NCBI GenBank assembly: GCA_963674595.2
Contig: CAXXFV010000003.1
Span: forward strand, 64,001 to 128,000
DNA length: 64,000 bases
Direction: 5' to 3'
DNA from: a bacterium
GTDB taxonomy: Bacteria; Zhuqueibacterota; Zhuqueibacteria; Residuimicrobiales; Krinioviventaceae
Part shown: one piece after another, positions 1-52,980 of the stretch
How the letters are laid out: every line of letters begins with the position of its first letter
How positions within the stretch are numbered: position 1 is the first letter of the stretch
Notes under the pieces: generated by a model
Told to the model about the DNA's origin: nothing
What the model saw: the letters and a program-made list of their open reading frames with translations, nothing else
Databases searched by the model: none
Program-made: the position numbers and the translations under genes

Positions 1-211
1 GTGTAAATTAATTTTGCTCGAGTTGTTGGAAGACAGATATAACATTCAGTCTACTATCATGACTTCGCAACTTCCGGTTACTCATTGGCACGAGCTGATG
101 GCCAGTTCGACTATTGCTGATGCTATCTGTGATCGTCTCGTGCATAATTCATATAAAATTGAAATGAATGGAGATTCTATGAGAAAAATTCTCAGTAAAC
201 ATTCCGGCTGA
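1..211 (+). CDS. istB: IS21 helper ATPase IstB, C-terminal part (runs off window start)
   Basis: LLEDRY...STIMTSQLP..W...ADAICDRLVHNSYKIEMNGDSMRK is the canonical IstB C-terminus. Confidence 0.9.
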   Translation, partial: CKLILLELLEDRYNIQSTIMTSQLPVTHWHELMASSTIADAICDRLVHNSYKIEMNGDSMRKILSKHSG

Positions 212-309
212 AAATTGCCACTATGATAAATTAAAATTGTCTAAATGTTTGGATTGTTCAGTGGTAAACTTTCAGCCGGAATCAGTGGCAACTTTCACCG
301 GAATACGCA
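1..309 (+). mobile_element. Right end of an IS21-family insertion sequence
   Basis: istB C-terminus followed by repeated IS21-type terminal motifs (GGTAAACTTTCAGCCGGAATCAGTGGCAACTTTCACCGGAATACGCA) ending in CA at 309. Confidence 0.85.
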
Positions 310-460
310 ATCTAATATTATTCTTTAATCTAAAAATATGAAAGATATGTTGATTTGTTTCGCAATGAGAGGAAAGTAATTTTATTAAATCGTAATAAGT
401 TTGAGATATTTTTAGCAAAAGCCGGGCATAATTATCCTGATACAATAATCGTGTCATTGG

Positions 461-640
461 GACAACAGGAATATGACATTGAATACAATGCAAACTTATC
501 CTCTTATGCCGTTAAAGCCCATGTTTAAATAAATGTGAAAAATCAGTCAACTATCCCACACATCCCGACCACTTAAAAAATCAAGACCGACAAAGAATTT
601 TAATAAATAAAAATGATTAGTGCAAGTTATTTTAGAGAAA
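461..640 (-). ncRNA. Conserved promoter + putative structured RNA element, copy A
   Basis: TTGCAC-17-TAAAAT promoter on minus strand, then blocks TGGTCG/GACTGATTT/ATGGG/GAGGA..TTGC/ATTCCTGTTG shared with 13534-13737 and 52780-52980. Confidence 0.5.
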
Positions 641-719
641 TATTTTGGATTCATAATATATCCTAAACTCACTTCTCTTGAAATTTAATAAAAGTATTAT
701 ACCCCTCTAAAACTTTGAC

Positions 720-7923: not shown

Positions 7924-8403
7924 TTAGTTAATAACCTCAACACCTTCAATTTTAGTATTTCCATTTTTAAATTCTAAATTATCACCAAACTTTGACATAT
8001 CCAGAAAATAATTTAAGTGTTTTGGAAATTTCATTATTAAAAATTGTTCATTAAGATTTAGAATACTTGTAACTGTATTTAGAAATTTTAATTCATTGTC
8101 ATCAATTTTTTTATCAGCCTCTATAATTTTAAGTATAACTTCAACCAATAATAATTTTTGCTTTTCTTTTATTTCAAATTTTTGAAGAACTTTAAGATAA
8201 TTTTCTATATAATTAATACCTTGTGATTTTATATCATCGACAACTGATTTTAACTCATTCTCAAAATCAAGATTTAAAAAATATGGATTTGTCTTTGCAA
8301 TATTTTTGAATAAAGAAATTTCATTTCTATGAATCTCACCATCACAAGCCATAACAGCAAAAGCCGTTTTGAAAAGAACTCTATCAAAAGAAATATTTTC
8401 CAT
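7924..8403 (-). CDS. TerB-family protein
   Basis: AFAVMACDGEIHRNE and IIEADKKIDDNELKFL are the paired TerB motifs. Confidence 0.8.
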   Translation of the reverse strand: MENISFDRVLFKTAFAVMACDGEIHRNEISLFKNIAKTNPYFLNLDFENELKSVVDDIKSQGINYIENYLKVLQKFEIKEKQKLLLVEVILKIIEADKKIDDNELKFLNTVTSILNLNEQFLIMKFPKHLNYFLDMSKFGDNLEFKNGNTKIEGVEVIN

Positions 8404-8431
8404 TTTAATACCCTTTCTTCACAAAGAAAGA

Positions 8432-10912
8432 TTAATAAAAACCAATTTTTGATTTTAGCTCATCTTGAGATAACTCAGGTAACAAATTGAATAAGTCATA
8501 GACTACTTCTGCAAGCCTATCAAAATTCTCACAATTTATTGCAAACTTGCCCGCTTCAATCAAACCTTTTGCTTTTTCCTGATCATTAAATCTTTGACGC
8601 TCACTTGTAAGCCATTGAAATGTATCAATTAAGAATGAAGGTGTTCGCCAATTTATAGTCCACATTAAATCTTTTAATTTATCAGTTTGTTCTCTAATTT
8701 TTAGTATACTTTTAGAACTTAAGATAGTATGTTCCTGGTTAACAATGCCATTAAAATGTTTTTGCTCAACATCATTTCCATTTTCATTTATTGTTTCATA
8801 ACATATTTGTTTGACTTCAAGATACCGACTTTTTGCCATCTCAATCTCTTTATCTTGAGTAGCAATATATATTTTTTGGGCAACACTGCACTTCTTGTCT
8901 TCTAATTGATAACGTTTATCAGTTACATCATCTATTGATAAAATAAGAGATTCACCTATTAGCTCATCAATTTCAGATTTTAGACTCTTCAGGTCTTTTG
9001 CAGATTCATAATTTTCTAACTCAATAGCAAATTTTATTTCTTTATCTATTTTCTCAGATAATTCAGATATTTGTTCAGACAATACTTCTTGTGGAACACT
9101 TCTCATAGTTGGGCTAAAGATCTCTTTAAATTCTTGATCAGTCATTGTAAGATAAGCAGAAACTGTTAAATCACGTGATTCAGACATCTCTAATGAAATT
9201 TCAATATCAGAGCCTTTTGCAATATTCCGATTTATACCTTTACCTGAAATCTCTAGAAAACCAATACTTCTATTGGCTTCTGGGAGGGCATAATGTGGCC
9301 CTTCTAAAATATTGATACGAAGAAAATCATCTGAACCTTTCACAATTATTCTATTAATTTCTTTTATCTTTGAGTATCTTAAAGGGAGAATAGAATTTTT
9401 TTGAAAAACCAATTCACAACGAGTATGTTTACTCTCAAAGTCATCAACTTCCAAACAAATATCATTTGGAAGCGGCTGACCTGCAATACTAAATTTCCCC
9501 TGAGCGATTCCTATTGGCTCAACATCAACAGGAATCTTGTTATTTTGTTCATCATAAATAGAAATATTAAAATAATTATAACTATCATTTACAAGCGGCA
9601 AATCTTCGGATATTTTTTTTGATAGCAGTTTTAATCCGGTATCAAATCCCCCGTCTTCTCTTACAATTCTGTAAAATAGACCTTCAACATTACCTTCTAT
9701 TTTTGCTGCAAAAAATTCTTCAGATTCTTTAGTAGCTTTCTGGTAGGCGGTTTTAATTATAAGTTTATTTTCAACATATGATTTGGGTTTTTCATCTTTT
9801 ATAACTTTTTGTTTTGTTCCTGCATAATATGCAGCACCAATTGCAATTGCAGTAGTCGGATCAATCTCACAGTTTATAGGGAGTTGCATAATTTCATTTA
9901 CACGGTTTCTTACTAATGGAATATATGTAGAACCTCCAACCATAAGTATAAAATCAATATCATTAGATGTAAGTGAATTTTGAACCATTATCTTTTTAAT
10001 CATTTCAATTGATTTATCAATATATTGCTGAATCATAGATTCAAATTCAGAACGAGTAATAGTGATAATTATTTCATGAGTTTCACCATCTTCATCGGTT
10101 ATATCAAATTCAATTTCAGCAGATGACTTTGCTGATAATTGAATTTTTGCCTGTTCTGCCTGATGAAGTGCTATATAAAATACTGAATTATACTTCCCAG
10201 AAGCGCTTTTCATTTCCTTTTCTAAATTTTTAAAATTATATTCAGCTTCTAAATATGGTATTATCTTCTTCTCAACAATAAGTCGGTCGAAATCAGATCC
10301 ACCTAAAAAATTATCACCTTCATGATCTAGTATTTTCATTTCACCGTCATTAATTTTTACAAGAGCAACATCAAAGGTACCTCCACCAAGATCGTATACA
10401 ATCCATTGGCCATCTTTTAAATCATTCATTCTTTTGTTGGCATAAGCCAAACTAGCTGCGATTGGTTCTTGTAATAGAACAACCTGTTTAAAACCGGCTA
10501 ATCTACCAGCTTCCTTTGTTGCATTTGATTGAATTGTATCGAAAGATGCAGGAATTGTAATCACTGTAGAATCAATTTGTGTCCCAGATTGTACAAAATT
10601 CTTTAGCTCTTTTATTATATGGGCGGATAACTCAATAGGTGTAACAGATTTTCCTATTGAATTTATTTTATATGCTTCATTTGTCCCCATTTTCCGCTTA
10701 AAAGAAGAAATAACATTTTTTGGAGATTTCTCTAAATAACTTTTTGCCTGTTCACCGACTATAATTTTATCTTTTCTAAAAAGGACAACTGAAGGTAAGG
10801 TGTCTTTCCAACTTATAGGATTTTTGTAAATATTTACTTCACCTTTTGTAAATTTTGCGATTACAGAATTTGTTGTGCCGAGATCAATACCAAAATTAAT
10901 CATATTTTCCAT
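8432..10912 (-). CDS. Atypical Hsp70/DnaK-family protein (826 aa, helical C-terminal extension)
   Basis: GIDLGTTNS, TIPASF, EPIAA, YDLGGGTFD, LGGSDFD, VGGSTYIP motifs. Confidence 0.92.
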   Translation of the reverse strand: MENMINFGIDLGTTNSVIAKFTKGEVNIYKNPISWKDTLPSVVLFRKDKIIVGEQAKSYLEKSPKNVISSFKRKMGTNEAYKINSIGKSVTPIELSAHIIKELKNFVQSGTQIDSTVITIPASFDTIQSNATKEAGRLAGFKQVVLLQEPIAASLAYANKRMNDLKDGQWIVYDLGGGTFDVALVKINDGEMKILDHEGDNFLGGSDFDRLIVEKKIIPYLEAEYNFKNLEKEMKSASGKYNSVFYIALHQAEQAKIQLSAKSSAEIEFDITDEDGETHEIIITITRSEFESMIQQYIDKSIEMIKKIMVQNSLTSNDIDFILMVGGSTYIPLVRNRVNEIMQLPINCEIDPTTAIAIGAAYYAGTKQKVIKDEKPKSYVENKLIIKTAYQKATKESEEFFAAKIEGNVEGLFYRIVREDGGFDTGLKLLSKKISEDLPLVNDSYNYFNISIYDEQNNKIPVDVEPIGIAQGKFSIAGQPLPNDICLEVDDFESKHTRCELVFQKNSILPLRYSKIKEINRIIVKGSDDFLRINILEGPHYALPEANRSIGFLEISGKGINRNIAKGSDIEISLEMSESRDLTVSAYLTMTDQEFKEIFSPTMRSVPQEVLSEQISELSEKIDKEIKFAIELENYESAKDLKSLKSEIDELIGESLILSIDDVTDKRYQLEDKKCSVAQKIYIATQDKEIEMAKSRYLEVKQICYETINENGNDVEQKHFNGIVNQEHTILSSKSILKIREQTDKLKDLMWTINWRTPSFLIDTFQWLTSERQRFNDQEKAKGLIEAGKFAINCENFDRLAEVVYDLFNLLPELSQDELKSKIGFY

Positions 10913-10917
10913 AATTA

Positions 10918-11292
10918 TTACCTTTTATTGTTTTTCTGGGACTCAACAATGACCACTGCTTTTTGAATAATAAACATTCTTTCTTTCTGATGGAGTCTTA
11001 TTATTGGCTTAATTACTTCTGTTATTACAAGATTTTCTGTTTTCTCTCCAGCAATACTTGCTTCACAATCAGTTCTTGTCTCATTAAATTTTTCACCTAT
11101 TGGATTGTAGTAAGATAACCCTCCTTCTTTTCCAATTATACTTGTTTTGAAATGATCTTTCAATTGCTGGAGGTTCCTTGAAATTGAATTTTCGTCACTT
11201 AGCTTTTTAACCTTTTTTTCTATTTCAAAAATTTGATTTAAAATAAAAGAAAAGTACTTAATCTCATCGGAAATTTTTTGTTGAATATGCAT
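10918..11292 (-). CDS. GrpE-like protein
   Basis: PIGEKF...ITEVIKP.I......IIQKAVVIV resembles the GrpE beta-domain; directly upstream of Hsp70. Confidence 0.6.
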   Translation of the reverse strand: MHIQQKISDEIKYFSFILNQIFEIEKKVKKLSDENSISRNLQQLKDHFKTSIIGKEGGLSYYNPIGEKFNETRTDCEASIAGEKTENLVITEVIKPIIRLHQKERMFIIQKAVVIVESQKNNKR

Positions 11293-11301
11293 ATTTTATC
11301 C

Positions 11302-12117
11302 TTATTTAAAAAAATCATATTCATTAATAGTAGATTGTTTCATATTACCCCCGATTACGCTAAGTTTAATATGTATGGTTGAATATTGATAACCATTATC
11401 CTGTAATTTAAAAACATCATTGCTGCTTGAAGATTCGCTAAAATGAAAATCTGTCTCAAAACCACCTTTAATACTACCATTTTTAAATTTTTTATTTGGA
11501 TTCCAATCTTTACCAAAGAATTCTTTAATATAATATGTTCCATTCGGAACATTTGTCATTTGAAAAGAAGAACCGGCCCTAATGTATTCATTTCTAATAG
11601 TTTTCCCAGAGTAGTAGTTTACCAAACAAACTACTGCATCATAATTTTTATCTGTTTCTATTTGAATCCAATTTTGATGTGATTTATTATAGATACCTTT
11701 TCCAAAATAACTATCATAAGGAGATGTACCATTTTTCAAGAAATTACCTTTGTATTTACTAAAGGTACCAGTCTCATCTAGTATATACCGATTTTCATTC
11801 GTGGAATTATTATTATCGGATTCGTTTTGTGAATAGCTACTAGATTTATAATTATTACCAGATTCATTGTATGAATAGTTGCTAGAGCTAGAATTGTTTG
11901 AATTTAAAATTACAGTAATTAGCCAAATACAAAGCAATAAAATTACGCTATATTTCCAAATTTTTTGCAATGTATATAATTGTAATTTCCCATAAAATTT
12001 ATATTGGCCAGTATATGTTTTGTCATAAGAATACCGGGCGATAGGTAATATAGGTATACCGAATAATACAAAATATAGAGTTTTTCCATAGATTATAGTA
12101 CCACAACCATTAATCAA
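11302..12117 (-). CDS. Membrane-anchored protein; probable C-terminal half of the 12146-13333 gene
   Basis: Hydrophobic segments plus Ser/Asn linker; joins in frame with the upstream ORF if the A11 tract is A10 (EKKKYGEPIKSAPSLKLINGCGT). Confidence 0.65.
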   Translation of the reverse strand: MINGCGTIIYGKTLYFVLFGIPILPIARYSYDKTYTGQYKFYGKLQLYTLQKIWKYSVILLLCIWLITVILNSNNSSSSNYSYNESGNNYKSSSYSQNESDNNNSTNENRYILDETGTFSKYKGNFLKNGTSPYDSYFGKGIYNKSHQNWIQIETDKNYDAVVCLVNYYSGKTIRNEYIRAGSSFQMTNVPNGTYYIKEFFGKDWNPNKKFKNGSIKGGFETDFHFSESSSSNDVFKLQDNGYQYSTIHIKLSVIGGNMKQSTINEYDFFK

Positions 12118-12145
12118 TTTTAAACTTGGTGCGGATTTAATTGGT

Positions 12146-13333
12146 TCACCATACTTTTTTTTTTTCTTCTAATAAACTTGATAGAGAATATTTATCTTCT
12201 TCTATTTTATTCTTGAGATCATTTGGGATTTCTATCTTGAGTGCCATTTCTATGAATATAATTGAAGTTTCAACATCGTTGCACATATTCCAGGTAGACA
12301 CCGATAGATTTCTTAGTGTGAGAGCAAGCTGAATTCGGACTTCATCGAATAAGCTTGGTAAAGAATTCAGCTCAAAAATATCAATATTTTTTTGTAATTC
12401 TTGCAGAACAATTGTTGGCCTAATATCTTTATTATCTATTTTTTCTATAAACTTTTTCGAATTAACAAACAATAATGCATATTTTTTTAAAGTAGGTTCA
12501 TACTTTTCTGTTTCTTTTCGCTCTAAATTTATTTCTTCAATTTTTGTTAAATCATGCCTTATCTTATCATTCGATAAACCATCAATTTTAATACCCAAGG
12601 CAAACCTTATCATACTTATCGAAACTTCAGCATCACCGATGTTATTAAATATATCTATTGACAAATTGCGTAATGCAAAAGATAAATTATTTCTAGACTC
12701 TTGAAAATAAAAAGGAAGTAAATTTATACTTTGGTGATGTATTTTATCTTTGATATTTTCATCTAATTTACAAATATTTTCTTCATTATATTCGCTCGTT
12801 TCATTTTTAATATTTTTGGATATTTGCTCAAGCCATTTAATTTTATTTTGAATATAATTATATGTTCCTTGAAAAGCTTGGTCTTTAAAATCATTGTTTA
12901 CTAACAATGGTAAAGAATTAAGTATATTTAGGGCTTTTACACTTTTTTTTTCCAAAGCTTTTATTAATAATTCAGAATATTTGGGGGCATAATATGGGCT
13001 GATGAAATCAATGAATTTAGATAAATTAAATATTGATTCGTGTCTAAAATTGATAAAAAATTTAGTTTCACCATTGAATAAAAAATTGTTTAATTCTTTA
13101 TAATTATACAGAAAAAAATAGAACTCTTTTTTATTATCATCTTCCAGTTCATCAAAGGATTTTAAAATATCTGATTTATTGAATTTCTGATTTTTAATAT
13201 TAATTGAATTATCATCACTTAATTCTATTTCGGCAAGAATTCTTTTTTTGCTCTTTTTTATTGTTATAGAATCAAGTTCTGATATTGACTTGAGGGGAAT
13301 TTTAAATAAATCTAAAGGATTAAGATATCGCAT
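12146..13333 (-). CDS. Helical-repeat protein with degenerate J-domain-like N-terminus
   Basis: NPLDLF.I......ITIKKSKKR start; internal repeat (RNNLSFALRNLS / RIQLALTLRNLS); ends in an A11 tract. Confidence 0.55.
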   Translation of the reverse strand: MRYLNPLDLFKIPLKSISELDSITIKKSKKRILAEIELSDDNSINIKNQKFNKSDILKSFDELEDDNKKEFYFFLYNYKELNNFLFNGETKFFINFRHESIFNLSKFIDFISPYYAPKYSELLIKALEKKSVKALNILNSLPLLVNNDFKDQAFQGTYNYIQNKIKWLEQISKNIKNETSEYNEENICKLDENIKDKIHHQSINLLPFYFQESRNNLSFALRNLSIDIFNNIGDAEVSISMIRFALGIKIDGLSNDKIRHDLTKIEEINLERKETEKYEPTLKKYALLFVNSKKFIEKIDNKDIRPTIVLQELQKNIDIFELNSLPSLFDEVRIQLALTLRNLSVSTWNMCNDVETSIIFIEMALKIEIPNDLKNKIEEDKYSLSSLLEEKKKVW

Positions 13334-13533
13334 AAAATTTGTCCAGATTTAACAGGAAAAAATATAACATTTGTAAACGAAAGAACACTAATCATAGTAT
13401 CATATTTGAAACATCAAAATATAGTTTAGATGTCTTAATCAAGTGGTAAATATTTTCTCTCAAAAAAACGTTTCGATTAGTTTTGATATAAACAACCCAC
13501 ACCCTACCGCACTCAAAAATATTGACCGCAAAC

Positions 13534-13737
13534 CAACAGGAATGTAATACCGTAACCGACGCAATCTCTTCCTCGTATGTGTATAAGAATCCCATAATTA
13601 TAAAAATGGTGGTAAATCAGTCAGGGATCTCAGAAACTCCCGTGCTCGACCAAATCGTCCTGAAAAATCGTCCTTTTACCTGATAAAATAATGATACAAA
13701 CTTTTTATTTTTCCCGCAAGCTGTTTTTAAAAAATTT
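13534..13737 (-). ncRNA. Conserved promoter + putative structured RNA element, copy B
   Basis: TTGCGG-17-TATCAT promoter; clear nucleotide homology to 52780-52980 and weaker homology to 461-640. Confidence 0.6.
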
Positions 13738-13980
13738 ATCTGCTACTTCCATCACAAAAAAAGCCCCATATTACGACGGGGCTTATTAACGATTGAATTC
13801 CAATAATATTAATGTTCAGTTCTCTATAATCACCACCTCCTTTTATATAATTCAACATCTATATCTATCATCTTGCATCAATCCAGACGCAGGCAACACA
13901 GCCCTGGTCACCTATCACTTGAACGACCTTCCGGTCTAATAGTTGATTTTAAGAGTCAGGAATGCATTATAATCTTTGTA

Positions 13981-14571
13981 CTATATATTAATACTTAATT
14001 GTTCCGAATAAACTTTTATTAATTCATTCCAGGGCTGCTTTTGAGATAATAAAGGCCATTTATGACTCGTGGTTGCCAATTGATGCAATGCCTCAAATGT
14101 CTTGTGCCCAACATACCGATTAGCGAATTGAAACACATATCGTCCAATTAAGGCACTGTCGATCTCTGGTATATTTCTTAAATTCAACTGAAGAGTCTGT
14201 AACGTCATTTGACGCTTCATATAATCCTGGTGTCCGGACCGGTTCCATTGTGCCGGATTAATGAGAATATGCGAATCAAATATCTCTTTACAGATCGTCA
14301 ATTGAGTTTGACTGACATGGGCATTTACTTCCCATGTCATGTTCCCGTTTGTATACTGCTCATGATCCTCAATCACTGCAAAAGCAATATTATGATGTTG
14401 CCTGGTTTTGAATAATCTTTCACTGTAATCAAGATGTTTAAAATATTTTATTGTTCCTGTGTTTATATATTTACCATACTGGTCCCAGATGGTCAAACCG
14501 GTAAAATTACCAGGGGAAATACTCACAAAAGTTACATTATTCATAATCACACCTTTTATTTTAATTTTCAA
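13981..14571 (-). CDS. RuvC/RNase H-fold-like phage protein lacking the first acidic residue (copy 1)
   Basis: FVSISPG.FTG..IW..., AVIED, EIDSALIG; close paralog of 58236-58805. Confidence 0.5.
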   Translation of the reverse strand: MKIKIKGVIMNNVTFVSISPGNFTGLTIWDQYGKYINTGTIKYFKHLDYSERLFKTRQHHNIAFAVIEDHEQYTNGNMTWEVNAHVSQTQLTICKEIFDSHILINPAQWNRSGHQDYMKRQMTLQTLQLNLRNIPEIDSALIGRYVFQFANRYVGHKTFEALHQLATTSHKWPLLSQKQPWNELIKVYSEQLSINI

Positions 14572-15145
14572 GCCATGGTTTTAATTGATTGACCGTCGGA
14601 TATGGCAGTTGTTTTAAAGCCATCTGCTTCATGGCAACAAATCCGCCACCATTTGTGTCAAAATCAATAATTTCAAAAGTCAGTTTGCCCATAAGAGCAG
14701 AATCCGTCTGATGAGAATTTGGCAGTTGTTCTCCGAATAGATCCCTGGACCATTGTCGTTTGAATTTATCTTTACATTTATTCCGGTTCCATTGTGTGTG
14801 AAAGATCAGGATATGATCCGGAAACACTTCTTTACATACCTGGATTTGAATTGATACTTTATACGAGTTTTTTCTTTTCATACCGATAAACGGTTTGTAA
14901 TCTTCAAGAAGAATAAATTCAAGGTTGTACTCTTTTTTAATTTGTTCCAGTAACAGTCTGTATTGTTGTGTGTCTTTAAAGGGTAGATTCTTTGAACAAA
15001 CCTTTGATCCCATACTGTTAAAAACACTGATCCCACCCGGATTACCCGGATCAACAGCACCCCAAAATCTGTTTAAATTCGACATGGTTTCTATCTTTCG
15101 AGATTCCACCAAAGCTGTAATCATATTATTCTGTAGTCGAATCAT
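14561..15145 (-). CDS. RuvC-like resolvase/nuclease (copy 1)
   Basis: WGAVDPGNPGGISV, ILLED, TDSALMG; paralog of 58809-59435. Confidence 0.55.
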   Translation of the reverse strand: MIRLQNNMITALVESRKIETMSNLNRFWGAVDPGNPGGISVFNSMGSKVCSKNLPFKDTQQYRLLLEQIKKEYNLEFILLEDYKPFIGMKRKNSYKVSIQIQVCKEVFPDHILIFHTQWNRNKCKDKFKRQWSRDLFGEQLPNSHQTDSALMGKLTFEIIDFDTNGGGFVAMKQMALKQLPYPTVNQLKPWLEN

Positions 15146-15159
15146 GTCAAACTCCTTTT

Positions 15160-15700
15160 CTATTTCTCATTGATATTCAATAATTCAATCTTTTTCCAAT
15201 TTAATTCTCTGGACATCGTATCTGTCGCAAAGTGTTTTTGCTCTTCCACCTTGCTGTTATTTTTATAAGCATCCAAAAAATGTTTACGTGTAGCAGCAAT
15301 GGCAGTGGTTGATCTTATTTCAGGACCCCACTGTACAAGCAAAGGATATAAATGCCCTTCACCGTTTTTCTGCATTCGCTTTTCTATCATCATCATCATA
15401 CAGGAACCAATGGATGGGTCATAAAAATGGTCAAGATACATTTTAATCCGGTTCCAGGCTACCTGAGCTTGTTGTTGAAGAGGGTCCTGTCCCCGTAAAT
15501 CTGCCGGTGACGGGAAAAAAAGCATTTTTATTTCTAAAATATAAAACAGCATTCTTTTCAATTTCCTTAAAACTCAAGTCCTGTAATACCTTGAAATAAA
15601 AATCTATCTTCTCTGCTGTCAATGGTTGGTTATTATTCACAGCAACAGTTTCCATTTGCAACATGAGTTTTGAAAAACATTCTCTATCTTTCTCAGTCAT
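15160..15700 (-). pseudogene. Phage replication-associated (DUF6475-like) gene split by a frameshift
   Basis: ORF 15443-15700 ...NAFFP continues as FFPSPADLR..AQVAW in ORF 15160-15561; extra T in a T7 run (15515-15521). Confidence 0.55.
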
Positions 15701-15864
15701 ATATCAACCTCTATGATAAGACATTAAGATGTTACCTTTTTATTAATTTCATCATCAACGGATGTTACATCTGTTGATGGATTCTTTTTGCTCGAATCTC
15801 TCAGGTCGTCGTATTTAATCGACGACCCGGAGTATTTATAGAACATGGCAACAAACCAAAAATC

Positions 15865-16275
15865 CTAAAACGGCAGGTCTTCTGCTTGTTCATCAGGAAA
15901 GTTTGTTTGTTGTTCCTGTTCATAGGTTTGGCTGAATTGTAAAATCTGTACCTGTTCAGCTTGTATTTCAGTCATATATTGCTTGTTTCCATCTTTATCA
16001 TCCCAGGAACGAGTGGCTAACTTGCCTTCGATATAAACCAGATCACCCTTTTTAGCATATTGAGAAATCATTTCTGCTGTTTTTCGCCAAACAACAACAC
16101 GATGCCATTCTGTTTTTTCGACAATTTCTCCGTCCTGTGATTTATAAGATGTATTGGTTGCCATGTTTAACGTCACAACAGCCACTTCAGAAGGAGTGTA
16201 TTTGATTTCCGGGTCTTTACCTAATCGACCGATTAACATGACTTTGTTTAATGTAGCTTTACTATTGTATGCCAT
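15865..16275 (-). CDS. ssb: Single-stranded DNA-binding protein
   Basis: LNKVMLIGRLGKDPE, TEWHRVVVW, IEGKL.TRSW, DLPF tail. Confidence 0.95.
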   Translation of the reverse strand: MAYNSKATLNKVMLIGRLGKDPEIKYTPSEVAVVTLNMATNTSYKSQDGEIVEKTEWHRVVVWRKTAEMISQYAKKGDLVYIEGKLATRSWDDKDGNKQYMTEIQAEQVQILQFSQTYEQEQQTNFPDEQAEDLPF

Positions 16276-16280
16276 TTTTA

Positions 16281-17003
16281 TTACCTCACTCGTATATCAT
16301 CTTTTGAATAAACTCTAATGCCCTGAAATTTATCAACAGCACTTTTTTTTAATTTTTGTACTTGAGCGTTAATTTTTGAACGGGACGGTTCGCATAGTTC
16401 CGGATGATGTTGGCACACCAGGTCCGGATCTGTTATGTCGTATTTCCAGTAGGTCACAACACTGGACGTCGCTTGAATGGATTGAACCGATGATTTGGCG
16501 ACGATTTCCTGACTTGCTACATGTTTGACAGCCTTATCCAGTGCCTGTTTGGTTTCTTCTTCAACCGTCGCTTCTTTGGCTTGTTCAAGTTCTTTGATTT
16601 GCTGATCTTTCTCTGCTTTTAAACGTTGTTCCTCTTTGTACTTTTTCCCCTTTTGATATTCCAAAAGTTTAGAACGCAGCATGCCATTCAGTTTATCAAC
16701 TTCACCTATCAGTGTTTTAAATGGCTGCTCTTTTGTTTTTATCTGTTCTTTTAATTCCCTGACCGATTCTTTTTTGGCTGTTTCAAGGTACTTTATAAAT
16801 TTTGATATTTTTCCGGTATAATCGGTCACCTCAAAAATGGTAGCATCATCAACCGTTATATCAACCACTTTTAGTTTAATATCTTTATAGGTTGATATAA
16901 TCATGGCATCATTAATCTCTGCCAATTCCGGTAAAGCTTCTGCTTCCATCACATCAGGTTCACCATTCAAAATACTGTCGAAAAAATCATTTTCCATGAT
17001 CAC
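16281..17003 (-). CDS. Phage coiled-coil protein
   Basis: 240-aa ORF in the recombination module; C-terminal W.Y.I.DP..V...GIRVY pattern typical of phage proteins at this position. Confidence 0.55.
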   Translation of the reverse strand: MIMENDFFDSILNGEPDVMEAEALPELAEINDAMIISTYKDIKLKVVDITVDDATIFEVTDYTGKISKFIKYLETAKKESVRELKEQIKTKEQPFKTLIGEVDKLNGMLRSKLLEYQKGKKYKEEQRLKAEKDQQIKELEQAKEATVEEETKQALDKAVKHVASQEIVAKSSVQSIQATSSVVTYWKYDITDPDLVCQHHPELCEPSRSKINAQVQKLKKSAVDKFQGIRVYSKDDIRVR

Positions 17004-17928
17004 TCTCCTTTTTCTCTTGTTGAACCTGTTGCATTCTCTCTTTTAACTTTTGCAGGAAAAAGTTTTGTTTTTTCGTTTCGATTTTTTGGGCTGTTGTCAC
17101 TCCCATATCCTCAAGCATTTTTAAATAAATGGCATGCGTGCCTGTCTGTTTAAAAAGCCATTCTTTGGCATTTTTACATTTGTCCTCAAAGGACGGCTCA
17201 GTTTTTGATTCCTGATTTGATTGATTGCTTTTAGTCGTTTTTTTGGAGGAATTATCTTTATTGAGGGAATTTGGGCCATTATTTCCTGAATCACTCTGTG
17301 TGTTCTTGTTTGAAATCTCATAGGGCCAGCCATATTGCGGATAGTCTTTGCGACGCCACAATAGAACTTTATTATTATCTCTTTTATCTGTATACCATTC
17401 ACTCATGGCGAATTCATTCTTCCATTCCATGATAAAATTGGGAGACCATAGTTCTGTAGCAATTCCCAAATCTTTACAACATCGGGTTAGACAATCTGTT
17501 TTGGCACCTTCAACTGCACTGGCATAGGTCATGGACTTGTTGTTCGGATGATACTTTTGTTCTCCCACAGCTTCAGAGATAAACTGGCCAAGAACAAATA
17601 AAACCCCGTGATAACAGACCAGATTTATGTTTTTATCATAAAAAATATTTCGACTATACAAGGCCCATCCACCAGCATGAAAAGCTTCTATTAATCTTTT
17701 ACGATAAAAAACACCCGGTAAATAAATAATGCCATCTGGCCGGATGGCAACATCGTTTTTATCGATTTCAGCAGACAATTTTCGTTGAACCTGATCTGTA
17801 ACAGGATTCTCAGCAATGTTATTATACAGATCGATTTCACAATTTTCCTGTACAGTCACTTCTTTATTTTGGTCTGACTTTATTGCCAAAGCAACCTGAG
17901 ATTGATTTCCATTTCCGTTTCCATTCAT
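16987..17928 (-). CDS. Rad52/Mgm101-like single-strand annealing protein
   Basis: DVAIRPDGIIYLP...YR.RL..AF..GGW, EGAKTDCLTRCCKDLGIATELW. Confidence 0.8.
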   Translation of the reverse strand: MNGNGNGNQSQVALAIKSDQNKEVTVQENCEIDLYNNIAENPVTDQVQRKLSAEIDKNDVAIRPDGIIYLPGVFYRKRLIEAFHAGGWALYSRNIFYDKNINLVCYHGVLFVLGQFISEAVGEQKYHPNNKSMTYASAVEGAKTDCLTRCCKDLGIATELWSPNFIMEWKNEFAMSEWYTDKRDNNKVLLWRRKDYPQYGWPYEISNKNTQSDSGNNGPNSLNKDNSSKKTTKSNQSNQESKTEPSFEDKCKNAKEWLFKQTGTHAIYLKMLEDMGVTTAQKIETKKQNFFLQKLKERMQQVQQEKKESDHGK

Positions 17929-17936
17929 AATTCACC

Positions 17937-18203
17937 TCAAAAATTTAATTTATCCTGATCTGTAAATCCTATTTGCATATTCTCAATGATTTGATTCATA
18001 AGGATTTCTTTGACATTCATATTGGAATAGGCTATTTTGACAGCCCCTTGTAATGCCACCATTCCAATAGAATTGTTCCCACCAAGAATGATTTGTGCCA
18101 GAGACACAATATCATGATCAATGGTGATGTCGATGTTTAAATTCTCTATTAGCATTTTTGCTGCTGAGACTTGTCTCTCCTTTGAAGGAACTTCTTTTAT
18201 CAT
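17937..18203 (-). CDS. Hypothetical phage protein
   Basis: ORF with RBS in a co-oriented phage gene run. Confidence 0.5.
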   Translation of the reverse strand: MIKEVPSKERQVSAAKMLIENLNIDITIDHDIVSLAQIILGGNNSIGMVALQGAVKIAYSNMNVKEILMNQIIENMQIGFTDQDKLNF

Positions 18204-18251
18204 TTCTCATCTCCAATTATATTTATGTCATTTCTCATGGCCATATAAACT

Positions 18252-18572
18252 TTACATCCATGTCTCAAAGAGTCCTGATGCCGGATCATACTCTATATCA
18301 AACATCCTCTTACAATAGCTTATGGGACATTGTATAGAGTCTGCTTCTCTGGATTGAATCCGGTCCAATATTTCAGAATCCAAATATCCATCCACAACAG
18401 TACCACAGTTAGGACAAATAATATGAAAAGCTTTTGTGTCGTTTTTTTCCTCTTCAGGCACATCAAAAGGAGCCGTAAATAACGGATTCGTGTACATGTC
18501 ATCATGATACATCATCAGGATCTCCGTCTCTTTGGCGTTTACTGGTATGATCATACAAGTACAAATCTTCAC
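18252..18572 (-). CDS. Small Cys-rich (zinc ribbon) phage protein
   Basis: CPNC and CPISYC pairs. Confidence 0.5.
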   Translation of the reverse strand: MKICTCMIIPVNAKETEILMMYHDDMYTNPLFTAPFDVPEEEKNDTKAFHIICPNCGTVVDGYLDSEILDRIQSREADSIQCPISYCKRMFDIEYDPASGLFETWM

Positions 18573-18864
18573 AACCCATGATGTTTCTGGCCATGCGAAG
18601 CCATCTTAAACGATTAGCTTGTCTGATTAAATTGGATATAATCCGAAAGTCCCCGGCATCTATTGGTGTCCGGCCACCTTTACATAAATTGTTTAATCGC
18701 CCGATGGTCATTTTAGCTTCCTGAGCAAACCATTCCCTGGTCAGTTGTTTATTCTGTGAGATACAATCCTTGATAGCATTATCAATTTCTGATGCAATAA
18801 ACCGAAACAGTTTCTCTTCTGCTGTTGAGAGTGTATCTTGTTTTTCAAATTGTCTTTCTTTCAT
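18502..18864 (-). CDS. HTH-like phage regulator
   Basis: LTREWFAQEAKMTIGRLNNLCKGG resembles an XRE HTH; first gene of the leftward operon. Confidence 0.5.
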   Translation of the reverse strand: MKERQFEKQDTLSTAEEKLFRFIASEIDNAIKDCISQNKQLTREWFAQEAKMTIGRLNNLCKGGRTPIDAGDFRIISNLIRQANRLRWLRMARNIMGCEDLYLYDHTSKRQRDGDPDDVS

Positions 18865-19586
18865 TTTTTTACTCGCTTTTTTATGTGGTTTTATAATGGA
18901 CGATTAATTTTTACACATTCCTGCAAAAATTAATGGCACTGCCCATTGAAAAAACCATTCACCCATATTATATTGAATTGTCAACTTTTAAAAAATGAGG
19001 TCAATTATGAAAGCAAAGAAAAGAGAACCTGTTGAATATACACTGAATTTAAGCTGTGAAATCAACTTTGATTTATTGAGGATTATCGAAACGGCATGTA
19101 TTTTTCAGAAAGCTTTTATTTCTTTATTGTTAAAAGACAAGAATTTCACTATCTTAAAATACAAAGGCTGCTCAGGTGCTTATGTTGATATTCAACAGGC
19201 TCTTTGCAGTGCTTTGTTAACTCCACCCTCTGGTTTGACTAGTGGCCAAACTTTACAGACCAGGGGGTTTTATTTTAATTGACCTGAAAATTCAATTTAA
19301 CAGGGATCACGGATTTTCAGGCGAGAGCAGTTTTCCATTATAGTTAAATGCTCGATGGTTTGAATGTCGTCCTGATGGATCAATTGAGTAAATGACCTCT
19401 TATTTATTATTGATTTTAAATGTTTTTTTCTTTAAAATAAAAATCAGCATAACCATATAAAAATAAATGTGTACGGTGTTTGTATCCGATTCAAAGAGGC
19501 TCAGCAGATTATAGGATCGGAAAATTAACGTGTCCTACCGTACATATTGCACCATAGTTTAATTAATGTTATTATAAGTAGTAAAC

Positions 19587-19994
19587 ATGACAATGGCAAG
19601 CAAAGAATATAATAATCATATTTTTTTTGAAAATCTTTTACATCTGTGCAAAGAAAAAAAATGGTCCCCAAACAGATTGGCAAAAGAAACAGGTGTGTCA
19701 GCTTCTTTTATATCAAAAATTAAAAATCTGGGCGCACATCCTTCAAATACTCTTTTATTAAATTTGTACAATATTTTTTCAGACGAAACCAAAATATTAA
19801 ATCCATTTTGGCTGTTTTACAATGAAGGTCCGCAATACTTGTACCTGAAAAAAGAAAATATTTTAAAATCAGATCCGCTTCAAAACGAACCCGATCAAAT
19901 TGTTCAGACTGTTAAAAAGATTCGGACCCTCCCTAAAGTAAAACAGGATTCCTTATTACAAATTATTAATGGATTTATTACATTTAATAAATAA
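19587..19994 (+). CDS. XRE-family HTH repressor (CI-like)
   Basis: WSPNRLAKETGVSASFISKIKN.. and LNPFWLFYNEGP; divergent from the early operon. Confidence 0.8.
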   Translation: MTMASKEYNNHIFFENLLHLCKEKKWSPNRLAKETGVSASFISKIKNLGAHPSNTLLLNLYNIFSDETKILNPFWLFYNEGPQYLYLKKENILKSDPLQNEPDQIVQTVKKIRTLPKVKQDSLLQIINGFITFNK

Positions 19995-20289
19995 GTAGAA
20001 ATGTCTGGCCGCTAACAGAATTATATAAAAATTGTATTAATTTCTGTAAGGACCACCCTCATAATAAACTCGATTTGTTATTGCCAAAAAACTGGGAAAA
20101 GATCGTCATATCTCATTAATTTTTTTTGTCAAGGTGTAGATCAACGGATGCATACATAAATGCTATAATGAGTCCCGTTAGCACCGATATTTAATTATTC
20201 CTTAACCATAATCTATATATCTTACTTTTTATGATAATATACTATATAAATTAAATTTAAAATAAAGCTAATGATCATATTGGATTCGA

Positions 20290-47300: not shown

Positions 47301-47920
47301 ACCCAGGACTAATACTGGATTGAGACATTACATTGGGTTCACCTATTGTTTTGGCCATAAGGCGTCGAAATACTACCCAGGACTAATACTGGATTGAGAC
47401 AAAATTGTTACTGGCGAACGTAAAAACTCAGATCCAAGTCGAAATACTACCCAGGACTAATACTGGATTGAGACGAAATTATTCCGCAAGAAGCCAGATA
47501 TTTCTAATAATGTCGAAATACTACCCAGGACTAATACTGGATTGAGACATATTCTACTACTTTTTTTATTTTTGTGTTATAAGGTCGAAATACTACCCAG
47601 GACTAATACTGGATTGAGACATAATAATCAAATTTATGAAAAAAATTAACCATTACAGTCGAAATACTACCCAGGACTAATACTGGATTGAGACTTTAAC
47701 TCCTGCTAGAGCCAGCATTATCCATTTTGCCAGTCGAAATACTACCCAGGACTAATACTGGATTGAGACTTAAAGAAAAAAGAGCGAGCGGCAATTGACG
47801 TATTTTGTCGAAATACTACCCAGGACTAATACTGGATTGAGACAATTCTTGTTATATAAGAAGCATTTTTTTACTGTTATTCGGTGGAAATAGACCTAAT
47901 TACCACGGAACGATTGAGAC
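44318..47920 (+). CRISPR. CRISPR array 3: 48 repeats GTCGAAATACTACCCAGGACTAATACTGGATTGAGAC plus a terminal array-1-type repeat (47884-47920)
   Basis: Regular repeat/spacer pattern; 10-spacer block duplicated; last repeat GTGGAAATAGACCTAATTACCACGGAACGATTGAGAC. Confidence 0.98.
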
Positions 47921-48607: not shown

Positions 48608-48740
48608 TAACTGCCCATATATAGAATGCACTCAAACAACACGTTCTATATATAGCAGAATAGGGGTAATTAATCAATATTTTGTGGGTTATACACCCAT
48701 AGCTTGTAAAAAGGTAGTTTCTCTTGGATGGAATTGCAAT

Positions 48741-48833: not shown

Positions 48834-48836
48834 AAA

Positions 48837-52812: not shown

Positions 52813-52980
52813 TCTCTTCCTCGTGTATGCTTTTGAATCCCATTTTTATGTGTGGTAAATCAGTAAAAGGCATCAGGATTTGCCATGTGCGACCAAATTG
52901 TCCTGTAAAATCGTCCTTTTGTCCGATAATATAATATTACAAACTTTTTATTTTTCCCGCAAGCTGTTTTTAAAAAATTT
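52780..52980 (-). ncRNA. Conserved promoter + putative structured RNA element, copy C (overlaps the intI start)
   Basis: TTGCGG-17-TAATAT promoter; homologous to 13534-13737. Confidence 0.6.

Follow-up and report, generated by a model that had tools for sequence, protein, structure and literature searches.

A dispersed promoter-leader sequence family ahead of accessory genes and prophage cargo in one Krinioviventaceae genome

Three related copies and their surroundings

The window, meaning the whole stretch of 64,000 nucleotides that was analyzed, carries three homologous non-coding copies on the minus strand, referred to here as A, B and C. A sequence-only reading had proposed this homology, and it was confirmed both by an alignment with 71% mean column identity and by a covariance model (R1), which yielded exactly three matches in the 64-kb window (A, 77.5 bits; B, 187.6 bits; C, 148.5 bits). 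The blocks named in that reading (TGGTCG, ACTGATTT, ATGGG, GAGGA..TTGC and ATTCCTGTTG) were all found in the three copies. Across the window ACTGATTTNNCAC was observed 5 times against 1.42 expected; ATTCCTGTTG alone was not enriched (8 observed, 6.1 expected).

Copy A (414..660, minus strand) was delimited by the alignment, by R1 (601-414) and by the family profile described below. An A/T-rich block lies upstream of its promoter-like motif (-35 TTGCAC at 625-620, a 17-nt spacer and -10 TAAAAT at 602-597, minus strand), and its leader RNA part (601-414, minus strand) contains an SD-like GAGGA (503-499), a TTG (493-491) and ATTCCTGTTG (472-463). This copy is a diverged member with a type-2 3' tail, scoring 58 bits with the family profile and extending to model position 233. 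From the leader TTG a 73-codon ORF (272..493, minus strand) runs into the right end of an IS21-family element downstream of the copy (1..309, plus strand; istB 3' end and terminal repeats, IstB_IS21 232 bits). That end is 100% identical to a copy on contig C25, and the IS21 insertion probably severed copy A from its original cargo.

Copy B (13485..13745, minus strand), recovered at full length by alignment, R1 and family profile, begins with an UP-like block, AAATTTTTTAAAAAC (13737-13723), followed by -35 TTGCGG (13719-13714), a 17-nt spacer and -10 TATCAT (13696-13691), all on the minus strand. Its leader (13695-13485, minus strand) holds an SD-like GAGGAAG (13574-13568), a TTG (13564-13562), ATTCCTGTTG (13543-13534) and a G/U-rich tail. 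Copy C (52782..52995, minus strand; alignment, R1 and family profile, model end 218) has the same arrangement, with an UP-like block, -35 TTGCGG (52962-52957), a 17-nt spacer and -10 TAATAT (52939-52934) on the minus strand, and a minus-strand leader with GAGGAAG (52822-52816), TTG (52812-52810) and ATTCCTGTTG (52791-52782). Past ATTCCTGTTG the family homology of copy C is lost and intI sequence goes on in frame. Homology had been described as stopping right after ATTCCTGTTG in all three copies, which holds for C only, since B has a tail and A a diverged one.

A multi-copy family of defective prophages has variable cargo slots, and copies B and C each head one of them. Upstream of B lies a prophage-like early module (13981..20058, minus strand) encoding an HTH regulator, an exonuclease, an Mgm101-type annealing protein, an SSB and ORFs of 194 and 196 aa; three further loci of the genome match this module at 89-93% identity. 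An intrinsic-terminator-like hairpin (13761..13784, minus strand) ends the module approximately 25 nt before copy B, and the cargo behind the copy (7924..13333, minus strand) comprises ORFs of 395, 271 and 124 aa without a family, an 826-aa Hsp70-like ORF and a TerB-domain protein. At four loci the 196-aa gene is followed by the terminator, the leader and then cargo that differs per locus. The slot of copy C is bordered on its left by a terminase large subunit gene (53281..55008, minus strand; phrog_675, 244 bits) and on its right by a portal-like 243-aa ORF (47900..48631, minus strand; phrog_30703) with approximately 230 nt of conserved sequence upstream. Between the terminase gene and copy C, just upstream of the latter, lies a second intrinsic-terminator-like hairpin (53006..53031, minus strand). 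In four of the six terminase copies of the genome the order was terL, terminator, leader, 4-6 kb of differing cargo and portal-like ORF. The terminase itself was not found in IMG/VR or among 60 relatives. Comparison of these paralogous loci bears out the earlier placement of B and C where conserved prophage modules meet variable cargo, each as an autonomous unit of variable content between conserved phage genes.

A genome-wide family and the genes behind it

Three copies were only a small sample of the element as it occurs in the source genome, a metagenome-assembled genome with 5% contamination. A search with nhmmer using a profile built from A, B and C found 91 copies, and a profile built from 20 full-length copies found 121 matches. 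All 121 begin at model positions 1-25, that is, at the same promoter edge, and their 3' ends are ragged. Promoter only was matched in 28 cases (19-54 bits), which may reflect generic promoter likeness; 15 matches end within or just past the 5' hairpin domain (model 100-169), 9 reach the TTG, 13 reach the end of the P4 hairpin, and 56 carry the tail, which adds approximately 45 nt of homology beyond ATTCCTGTTG and ends in GTTTCACGGTCAAAATTATTGGGTTGGGTG. Mean pairwise divergence among the copies is approximately 0.36 (approximately 64% mean identity), yet some blocks are nearly invariant, a pattern that speaks for selection on them. Repeat-rich intergenic DNA, with other repeat families close by, is the setting of many copies.

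The promoter-like motif described earlier, with a 17-nt spacer between its hexamers, is present as TTGCnn-17-TAnnnT in copies A, B and C, though a simple sigma-70 scanner called none of the three. The scanner missed them because the -35 hexamer agrees with TTGACA at only 3 of 6 positions. Among the family matches, 79 of 121 contain TTGCnn-(16-18)-TAnnnT, with a spacer of 17 nt in 74 of these 79; the -10 hexamer matches TATAAT at a mean of 5.1 of 6 positions and the -35 hexamer matches TTGACA at a mean of 3.2 of 6. Motif conservation, the terminator-like hairpins upstream of B and C and the orientation of the copies are the features that suggest a putative promoter, which would fire with a start site and an RNA length that are predicted from sequence.

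The family was found in one genome only and is lineage-specific, as judged from searches of relatives and from pattern searches. R1 gave no match in 60 relatives, and BLAST in 40 relatives gave a single 38-nt match only. A first sequence pattern had 0 matches in genome contigs. A second pattern matched 41 genome, 54 metagenome and 7 viral loci, and a third added 2 viral loci; all of these are regarded as chance matches because the 95 genome and metagenome loci score at most 13.5 bits with nhmmer and R1 found none in the 9 viral loci.

The nearest downstream ORF of 80 aa or more shares the orientation of the copy in 86 of 91 cases, at a median of 157.5 nt from the end of homology, which argues for a cis-acting 5' leader rather than a free-standing non-coding RNA. 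The start of the gene itself lies 36-351 nt past the leader (10th-90th percentile), across unconserved sequence. A Pfam scan of 105 ORFs at 60 loci revealed unrelated families downstream, including TIR, CAP12-TIR, GmrSD, SNF2, Schlafen-AlbA2, caspase and KAP NTPase domains, Gp49/HTH pairs, T9SS-tailed (secreted) proteins, kinases and others; toxin-antitoxin pairs and an integron integrase also stand downstream of copies. Some adjacent cassettes are duplicated, as with the Gp49/HTH pairs on contig C29. Median GC content of the downstream ORFs was 35.9%, compared with 39.2% for 4150 background ORFs (Mann-Whitney p = 1.5e-9). Genes upstream of the copies are heterogeneous, with terminators after them.

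Pairing potential and putative translation start of the leader

The leader is approximately 190 nt long and its 5' end is predicted to form a long imperfect hairpin composed of P1 (AUCAGC/GCUGAU), P1b (AAAGGAC/GUCCUUU) and P2 (UCAGGA/UCCUGA), capped by a conserved apical loop of approximately 22 nt. A further hairpin, P4, pairs the SD-like GAGGAAG with AUAUUCCUG around the TTG, and the SD-like strand can pair with this anti-SD-like strand in 93-95% of alignment cells. Pairing is conserved and covariation is moderate. In a MAFFT alignment 79.7% of cells pair, compared with 36-46% when the partners are slid, and the covariation score was matched by 3 of 500 shuffles. The best figures (81.8% of cells paired, 24 of 33 pairs varying on both sides, and 0 of 500 shuffles equal to the observed values) come from an alignment fitted to the structure, among copies that are mutually related. 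G-U pairs outnumber A-C mismatches in the 5' domain (106 vs 61) and in P4 (39 vs 14). A long-range helix, P3, is poorly kept, with 58.5% of cells paired and A-C at 43 vs G-U at 24.

RNAalifold predicted no consensus pairs from the MAFFT alignment, and a mutual-information scan of profile-aligned columns was mostly noise. Overall, fold stability does not exceed that of shuffles: the leader of copy B, taken whole, had z = +1.69, the 5' domain had z = +0.59 (B), -0.97 (C) and -1.24 (A), and P4 had z = 0.03 (B), 0.15 (C) and -3.07 (A). The pairing and covariation figures uphold the description of conserved blocks with variable, partly covarying segments between them. Of the stems first proposed within the variable segments, partial covariation stands, but the GGGA/TCCC versus GGCA/TGCC stem competes with the better-kept P1b and P2. 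A pseudoknot between loop and linker (UGGU/ACCA) was considered and rejected, having no covariation. A search of Rfam on the window gave 0 matches at the gathering score, and on copy B the best E-values were 1.4-8.6, all on the opposite strand, in agreement with the earlier view of an unannotated, promoter-bearing family outside Rfam.

The best conserved block of the leader is GAGGAAG, 5 nt, TTG. The tail of the 16S rRNA contains CCUCC, and 32% of crude ORF starts have an SD-like motif ahead of them, compared with 3.6% in a control window. Two genes, the integron integrase intI and a DUF6438 gene, are in frame with the leader TTG, and profile searches confirmed both families. For intI (51820..52812, minus strand; TIGR02249, 454 bits against a cutoff of 265, profile positions 1-315 corresponding to aa 16-330) the leader TTG is the sole canonical start codon upstream of the first position of the family profile. 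The DUF6438 gene (89.6 bits) has a second possible start, an ATG 14 codons downstream. Both fusions have an identical junction, after CCTGTT. Use of the TTG as a start codon is suggested by sequence context. The putative leader ORF, 1-75 codons long, has no codon periodicity (entropy 0.85, 0.59 and 0.72 at codon positions 1, 2 and 3), and its G-rich part is read in differing frames. A conserved leader peptide was rejected on the absence of codon periodicity and on the frame of the tail, which is not kept.

Interpretation and comparison with known systems

Taken together, the three copies are, with reasonable though far from complete confidence, best regarded as members of a lineage-specific, portable promoter-leader expression module present in some 90-120 copies, and not as guide or bridge RNAs. 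The module would consist, in order, of an A/T-rich UP-like block, a sigma-70-type promoter (TTGCnn, 17 nt, TAtaaT), the leader of approximately 190 nt and the P4 hairpin with its SD and TTG. It would work in cis, giving transcription to whichever gene follows, and would also provide a translation start, which opens a short leader ORF of low conservation or, in two copies at least, the gene itself. The genes that it precedes appear to be horizontally acquired or accessory ones (defence, toxin-antitoxin, secreted proteins and prophage cargo slots), and at copy C it would drive the integrase of an integron. The hairpins may tune mRNA stability or ribosome access. Spread by recombination at or within the shared sequence is offered as a guess.

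If the unit is as it looks, it is a natural plug-in expression adaptor that would account for the expression of newly acquired genes, prophage cargo and an integron integrase in this lineage, and one handle for joint control of all of these genes. Approximately 100 diverged promoter-leader-start units, apparently under block-wise selection, would head the foreign and accessory genes of this genome. The family also provides a tractable test case of whether reused promoters carry post-transcriptional control. For annotation, a caution follows, in that two real genes (intI and the DUF6438 gene) appear to begin inside a repeat.

A different reading of the same leader, considered rather unlikely, is that of a true sensor, either riboswitch-like or protein-operated and confined to this lineage, in which the 22-nt apical loop and the linker blocks bind a ligand or protein and binding switches the P4 hairpin that hides the SD and TTG. 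Approximately 90 accessory, defence and prophage-cargo operons, together with the integrase, would then be under one signal. The blocks left unpaired by the model (AAUUUGGUCGnGCAuGGGAG, UUUACCAC and ACGGGAUU) are nearly invariant at a mean divergence of approximately 36%, and the frequent SD-like/anti-SD-like pairing in P4 would suit such a switch. UUCCUG occurs twice and complements CAGGA/GAGGAA, so alternative pairings are possible. Riboswitches of the c-di-GMP type precede many functionally unrelated genes, as this leader does. On the other side, P2 is changed (CAGAAC/GUUCUG) in some copies without a matching change in P4, and the alternative pairing therefore lacks covariation support. The candidate pseudoknot likewise has no covariation, fold stability is not above that of shuffles, no Rfam match was obtained, and the stretch from the leader to the start of the gene proper contains neither a terminator nor any other conserved expression platform. 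Truncated copies are common, and the family is confined to one genome, unlike ancient sensor RNAs. Were the sensor reading true, a protein or small molecule could open the hairpin and approximately 90 foreign or accessory operons would share one post-transcriptional signal; that the leader is a new class of cis-regulatory RNA, serving one lineage as the common control handle for its mobilome, is a tentative and on balance doubtful proposal.

The sequence could alternatively act mainly at the level of DNA, as shared homology or a specific site for cargo exchange between co-resident prophages and islands, with the promoter secondary; this is judged quite unlikely. Paralogous modules that are 89-93% identical lose homology in or at the leader, at 13535 for copy B against C9:127573 and at 52783 for copy C against copies on contigs C10 and C9. 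The prophages have recombinases of their own, namely RecT alongside a RecE-like exonuclease and Mgm101 alongside an exonuclease and SSB. By eye, promoter-spacer types and P4-loop types are mixed in combination among copies, and the two gene fusions share their junction. Against this, a PHI test on 55 copies detected no significant recombination signal (p = 0.22, at sites near saturation), 3' homology ends are scattered across the leader and define no single site, and no direct repeat of at least 11 nt is common to the ends of the B-type elements. An orientation bias of 86 in 91 is unnecessary for a recombination anchor, and the last conserved hairpin ends where the recurrent junction lies, a coincidence for which RNA-level selection would also account.

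High copy number in one lineage, frequent truncation and the many copies in repeat-rich intergenic DNA next to other repeat families would also fit a selfish or neutral intergenic repeat (of the MITE, REPIN or Correia type) that resembles a promoter by chance and has no host role. That explanation is very unlikely, as neither terminal inverted repeats nor target duplications were seen at the 5' edge and no conserved sequence lies beyond the promoter edge, the orientation bias is near-absolute, whereas MITEs and REPINs are orientation-neutral, the copies are conserved in blocks despite 36% divergence, and intI and the DUF6438 gene appear to depend on the leader TTG.

The least probable explanation, and an extremely unlikely one, is that the copies encode a stand-alone guide RNA of the bridge-RNA, omega-RNA or crRNA-like kind, with variable loops that direct a recombinase or nuclease to its DNA targets, as had been suggested from the conserved scaffold blocks with interspersed variable segments. 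Copy C does abut a tyrosine recombinase gene, and the window contains a type III CRISPR-Cas locus with RT-Cas1, but that recombinase is the integrase of an integron whose attC sites are ordinary ones, unrelated in sequence, and across 60 loci the heterogeneous neighboring genes include no recombinase, nuclease or other effector that consistently adjoins the copies. No IS110 (DEDD/Ser) recombinase was found beside copies at the 60 loci or in the window, and no TnpB or IscB domain occurred among the scanned ORFs. Comparison of the three copies with the remainder of the window, including its CRISPR arrays, gave 12-14-nt matches at chance level (k=14, 1 vs 1.26 in shuffles; k=13, 6 vs 4.6; k=12, 25 vs 14.3, with a shuffle maximum of 31). 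Furthermore, 86 of 91 copies run into a co-oriented ORF, and no terminator was seen after the leader of copy B. Of the suggested riboregulator, only the weakest sense survives, that of a cis-acting 5' leader, and a free-standing RNA does not.

A DNA capture site, also suggested at first, is not supported, as the attC sites of the integron beside copy C differ in sequence from the leader. These attC-like sites (50136-50284 and 49004-49130) contain GTTAGGT and GTTAGGC. An attC or attI site is an imperfect palindrome with R'' (..AAC) and R' (GTTRRRY) at its bounds, and it lies at the 3' end of cassettes. Identity of the leader itself with attC or attI was rejected: its outer helix is AUCAGC/GCUGAU, and the GTT in CCTGTTG precedes GTT, ATT or GGT, not RRRY. 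A genome-wide link between leader and attC could not be drawn, as the attC motif A[AC]CGTTAG[GA] was not enriched in the genome (63 vs approximately 200 expected under a uniform model).

Known systems resemble the proposed promoter-leader module in part. Bridge RNA and omega-RNA are promoter-driven, structured non-coding RNAs of approximately 150-200 nt at a mobile-DNA border, with variable segments. The gene for a bridge RNA adjoins that of an IS110-family recombinase where the element ends, and two loops inside the RNA are complementary to target and donor DNA; an omega-RNA overlaps the 3' end of tnpB or iscB or comes after it, and flanking DNA provides its guide. Like IS110 bridge RNA and TnpB/IscB omega-RNA, the family is a structured leader with variable segments at such a border; unlike them, it has no adjacent cognate recombinase or nuclease and no loop-target complementarity, and its RNA is predicted to continue into the gene. 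Leader-peptide control, RNA thermometers and the STAB-SD stabilizer of cryIIIA mRNA represent leaders with an upstream ORF or a hidden SD. The family shares with these an SD-like sequence far upstream of the gene start, paired to a U/C-rich strand, a start codon, a short ORF, and a hairpin from about +1 of the predicted transcript. It differs from these systems in having no conserved peptide, no codon periodicity and no terminator/antiterminator pair that could be found.

Correia, ERIC and REPIN sequences are moved by transposases, insert in both orientations and carry inverted repeats at their ends. The present family is similarly a set of dispersed, lineage-specific intergenic repeats of 100-250 nt with promoter potential and transcript hairpins, but no terminal repeats were seen and its orientation follows the downstream gene (86/91). 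Juhala et al. 2000 reportedly described phage morons in HK97 and HK022, and Rousset et al. 2022 are said to have described accessory and defence hotspots of P2 and P4 between conserved phage genes. As in morons and hotspots, copies B and C lie between conserved prophage genes with a terminator upstream and a predicted promoter of their own, and their cargo varies among otherwise 89-98% identical prophage copies and includes defence-type genes. Unlike in morons, one promoter-leader heads slots at different positions of related prophages, and it also occurs approximately 80 times outside recognizable prophage modules.

The closest comparison is with putative mobile promoters (PMPs), defined as highly similar non-coding sequences before unrelated genes within one genome, without a known mobile element (PMC3575422; Nijveen, Matus-Garcia and van Passel 2012, summarizing Matus-Garcia et al., NAR 2012). 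Pairs of approximately 92% identity make up most PMP families, RNA motifs occur in some PMPs, and how PMPs spread is not known; the same account (PMC3575422) names Correia, ERIC and REPIN-type intergenic repeats with promoters. The PMP cut-off is at least 80% identity over at least 50 nt between gene-upstream regions within a genome, and copy C aligns to other loci with 80% identity over query positions 1-182, 86% over 1-139 and 79% over 10-209, so that pairs at PMP level exist (up to 80-86% over 139-182 nt); many further copy pairs, at 69-78%, fall below the cut-off. As with PMPs, the genes downstream are non-paralogous (105 ORFs at 60 loci, in many unrelated Pfam families). Unlike PMP pairs, the leader family has 91-121 members at approximately 64% mean identity, and it reaches approximately 190 nt into the predicted transcript, with partly covarying hairpins and an SD and start codon of its own, and marks prophage cargo slots. 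Promoter reuse has been known mostly as near-identical pairs whose function and route of spread are obscure, and the scale here differs.

Leader copies in the window and across the genome

Copies A, B and C of the leader family (minus strand; approximately 414-660, 13485-13745 and 52782-52995) were read directly and found to share one block order, in which an A/T-rich block is followed by TTGCnn, 17 nt and a -10-like hexamer, and then by TGGTCG, ACTGATTT, ATGGG, GAGGA....TTGC and ATTCCTGTTG. Alignment of 300-nt stretches of the three copies with MAFFT gave a mean column identity of 71%. A covariance model of the leader (R1), built after this alignment from other genomic copies, matched the 64-kb window exactly three times, all on the minus strand: at copy B (13695-13485, 187.6 bits), copy C (52938-52733, 148.5 bits) and copy A (601-414, 77.5 bits). 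The three are genuine copies, as the sequence-only reading had proposed, and the window holds no further one. Its failure to assign a known RNA family was also borne out, as no copy in the window matched Rfam at gathering score and the best hit of an E-value scan of copy B (E = 1.4) was on the wrong strand.

The feature is real, and its extent far exceeds the first description. The surrounding metagenome-assembled genome comprises 6.6 Mb in 37 contigs; within it, BLAST with copy C found 42 places, an nhmmer profile of A, B and C found 91 copies, and a profile of 20 full-length copies gave 121 matches at E < 1e-3 (at least 100 bits in 62, at least 50 bits in 87), so that the description as a three-copy element does not hold. 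Copy density reached 6.6-8.5 per 100 kb on three contigs versus approximately 1 per 100 kb elsewhere. All 121 matches began at the promoter's upstream edge (model positions 1-25), and their 3' ends were ragged: 28 ended within the promoter region (low scores, which may reflect generic promoter likeness), 15 within or just past the 5' hairpin domain (model positions 100-169), nine at the TTG, 13 at the end of the second hairpin, and 56 included an extra tail of about 45 nt (..GTTTCACGGTCAAAATTATTGGGTTGGGTG). Homology had been thought to stop directly after ATTCCTGTTG, which is the case for C only; B carries the tail, and A carries a diverged version that also occurs in a few other copies. The copies diverge by approximately 36% on average, yet some blocks are nearly invariant, suggesting that the expansion is not recent and that the blocks are under selection.

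The family was not found outside its own genome by BLAST, R1 or pattern searches of collections that may omit records very close to this genome. BLAST against 40 relatives yielded just one 38-nt match, R1 at E <= 0.01 with stricter filters had no match in 60 relatives (18 from its family, 24 from its order and 18 from its class), and an exact pattern had none in 185,579 species genomes. The loci returned by a looser pattern (41 in genomes, 54 in metagenomes, 7 viral) and by a third pattern (two more viral) were all chance matches.

Predicted promoter, start codon and RNA structure

The motif TTGCnn-(16-18)-TAnnnT was present in 79 of the 121 family matches. Among these motif-bearing copies the spacer was 17 nt in 74, a TG directly abutted the -10 in 66, and agreement of the -10 with TATAAT averaged 5.1 of 6 positions. 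The promoter motif described for A, B and C recurs across the family at the motif level, with a simple sigma-70 scanner calling none of the three because the -35 shares only about 3 of 6 bases with TTGACA. No block in the family is better conserved than AAATTTTTTAAAAAC, which lies upstream of this motif and resembles an UP element. Terminator-like hairpins of the upstream genes end approximately 25 nt before B and C, and the next ORF of at least 80 aa was co-oriented with the copy in 86 of 91 cases, at a median of 157.5 nt from the end of homology (10th percentile 36 nt, 90th percentile 351 nt). From this strong context evidence we infer both roles of the family, promoter and 5' leader.

The most conserved leader block, ACGAGGAAGAGATTG, consists of an SD-like GAGGAAG, 5 nt and TTG. 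CCUCC is present in the 16S tail of the organism, and an SD-like motif stands ahead of 32% of crude ORF starts versus 3.6% in a control window. The frame opened by the leader TTG spans 16-75 codons in most copies and is not conserved as a peptide; variation is not raised at the third codon position (entropy 0.85, 0.59 and 0.72 for positions 1, 2 and 3), TTG and ATTCC are 18 nt apart in most copies and 14-21 nt in others, and the reading frame of the G-rich tail differs between copies. Two real genes are in frame with the leader TTG, namely the integron integrase gene intI beside C and a lipoprotein-like DUF6438 gene on contig C16 (89.6 bits; alternative ATG 14 codons further in). The intI profile match (TIGR02249, 454 bits against a cutoff of 265) begins at residue 16, upstream of which the leader's TTG is the sole ATG, GTG or TTG. 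In both fusions the junction is just past ATTCCTGTT, where the second hairpin ends.

When 26 copies were folded singly, the same design recurred. P1 (AUCAGC/GCUGAU) starts at about the predicted +1, P1b pairs AAAGGAC with GUCCUUU, P2 (UCAGGA/UCCUGA) closes a conserved loop of about 22 nt, and beyond a linker P4 (AGGAA/UUCCU and GAUU/AAUC) surrounds a variable inner hairpin with the TTG. In a MAFFT alignment of 38 copies, 79.7% of cells were paired versus 36-46% with partners slid, both sides had changed in 18 of 33 pairs (shuffle mean 13.0; reached by 5 of 500), and 3 of 500 shuffles attained the covariation score. A model-fitted alignment of 60 distinct copies, biased towards the structure used to fit it, gave 81.8% versus 33-45%, changes on both sides in 24 of 33 pairs, and 0 of 500 shuffles attaining the score. 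The excess of G-U over A-C (106 to 61 in the 5' domain, 39 to 14 in P4) is as expected of a sense-strand RNA. In the long-range P3 helix only 58.5% of cells were paired and A-C exceeded G-U, RNAalifold predicted nothing from the MAFFT alignment, and folds of A, B and C were not clearly more stable than shuffles except in P4 of copy A (z for the whole leader of B, +1.69; for the 5' domains, +0.59 in B, -0.97 in C and -1.24 in A; for P4, 0.03 in B, 0.15 in C and -3.07 in A). The 5' hairpin and P4 are plausible and moderately supported, and structure other than these is unsupported.

Prophage cargo slots and downstream genes

Upstream of C lie, in order, a RecE-like exonuclease, RecT, a replication initiator, a DnaC-like loader, an HNH protein, a ParB-like protein and the large terminase subunit, with a 243-aa portal-like ORF (47900-48631) 4.6 kb further along. 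The genome holds six terminase copies, and in four the terminase terminator is followed by a leader. Three of these four slots continue through 4-6 kb of differing genes to a conserved stretch of approximately 230 nt and then the portal-like ORF, the fourth (C25) having been traced only up to its cargo gene; the cargo is the integron integrase with two cassettes in the window, a kinase and a lipase on C9, unknown ORFs on C10 and a TIR protein on C25. Searches of the same kind found the terminase neither in the 60 relatives nor in IMG/VR. Upstream of B are an HTH regulator, an exonuclease, a Mgm101-type annealing protein, SSB and ORFs of 194 and 196 aa, a region that recurs in three other loci at 89-93% identity. 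The 196-aa gene, terminator and leader occur at four loci with different cargo in each, an Hsp70-like/TerB set here and a SNF2 helicase, radical-SAM protein or 371-aa ORF at the others. Placement at cargo borders is thus confirmed for B and C as prophage slots with variable cargo, and A leads to a 73-codon ORF that continues into the terminal part of an IS21 element; this element probably severed A from its cargo. Leader-headed prophage cargo slots resemble phage morons and hotspots.

The prophage family is multi-copy and defective-looking (window 53281-64000, 13981-20058, 2440-3147 and 47900-48631; also contigs C9, C10, C5, C25 and C3:10-42 kb). It includes five near-identical (97-100%) 243-aa portal-like ORFs, which cover only the first half of the portal profile, one divergent ORF (49%), two RecT copies and four Mgm101-type copies. 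The conserved non-coding stretch upstream of the portal-like ORF (within 48640-48990, minus) forms the right border of the cargo slot, carries a GGACC...GGGTCC hairpin and then a T-run, is common to the C9 and C10 copies and had no Rfam match. Between a portal-like ORF and copy A, a tandem-repeat region (698-2302) shows 66-78% similarity with a long array at C3:45.9-50.8 kb. A tyrosine-recombinase C-terminal motif (..LQSGAHLREVQEFLG..) was seen by eye in translation at 20300-20720 (plus), where there is no ORF of at least 80 aa; the B-type prophage-like module probably retains the remains of an integrase here, at its far end.

The terL-portal slot of the window contains a complete small integron (49004-52812, minus) comprising intI (51820-52812, minus, in the same orientation as the cassettes), cassettes for a T9SS-tailed CHAP-like protein (50306-51565) and a DUF5677 protein (49145-50113), and attC-like imperfect palindromes after each (50136-50284 and 49004-49130) ending in GTTAGGT or GTTAGGC. 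By eye, a second intI-linked leader copy (C29 ~6850-7140, locus L017) is cut just past the TTG; behind it come about 100 nt like the intI 3' end and then the post-intI (attI-like) sequence also present in the window. The arrangement, in the 196-aa-gene prophage context, resembles a leader::intI unit that has lost most of intI. An attC-like motif was also seen by eye at C29:5621. Elsewhere in the window, CRISPR arrays with a 37-nt repeat (35128-36121, 37421-38358 and 44111-47880) flank a type III cas locus with CARF/Card1 genes and an RT-AEP(TOTE)-domain protein beside Cas1 and Cas2, and one array is apparently split by an IS3-family element (36135-37400) that is 98.6-100% identical to four other copies.

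Pfam searches of 105 ORFs at 60 copies revealed no common family among downstream genes. Defence-type and other families included TIR, CAP12-type TIR, GmrSD, SNF2 helicase, Schlafen-AlbA2, caspase, KAP NTPases, an ABC-3C component and DUF4238; numerous proteins had T9SS sorting tails or were histidine kinases or outer-membrane barrels, and many ORFs had no family. On C29, several Gp49/HTH pairs stand behind leader copies in a tandem cassette run. The median GC of downstream ORFs was 35.9% versus 39.2% for the background (p = 1.5e-9).

Other repeats accompany the leaders. One is a second repeated hairpin, GGTGCCGGTTC(N)ACCGCACC, which contains a T-loop-like GGTTC. At several copies (e.g. C13:62.9 kb, C29:233.8 kb, C18:109.6 kb, C13:75.4 kb) it stands downstream of the leader or in place of the leader's 3' part, and at one copy (C26:67.9 kb) it lies upstream. 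Further intergenic families upstream of many leaders include GTCACCCTGAGCGG...GTCGAAGGGTG hairpins, CACAAAG(G/A)(G/A)CACAAAG runs, GTAGAGACGCAAAATTTTGCGTCTCTAC hairpins and TACCCCTACAGGATATT repeats.

Alternative readings and relation to promoter reuse

We favour the reading that the family is a promoter-leader-start-codon module, specific to this lineage and reused in front of accessory genes. That the leader is a true sensor RNA is unlikely, given that nothing indicates an expression platform and the sole alternative pairing seen does not covary. Service as recombination homology for cargo exchange would fit the breakpoints between paralogous prophages, but the PHI test gave p = 0.22, and we regard this as still less probable. 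The guide- or bridge-like RNA suggested earlier is not supported: a cognate effector gene is absent from the window and from 60 loci, complementarity of the three copies to the rest of the window, CRISPR repeats included, is at chance level, and the leader reads into a gene. A DNA capture site, also suggested, fares no better in an attC-like form, as the integron beside C has ordinary attC-like sites unrelated in sequence to the leader. The orientation bias and the lack of terminal repeats speak against a MITE or REPIN.

The closest described phenomenon to this promoter-leader module is promoter reuse by putative mobile promoters, in which highly similar upstream regions precede unrelated genes, mostly as pairs at approximately 92% identity, some with RNA motifs and with an unknown mode of spread (PMC3575422). 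The closest pairs of the leader family qualify as putative mobile promoters. The leader family differs from them in its scale, its divergence and a conserved leader that includes an SD and a start codon of its own; it also marks prophage cargo slots.
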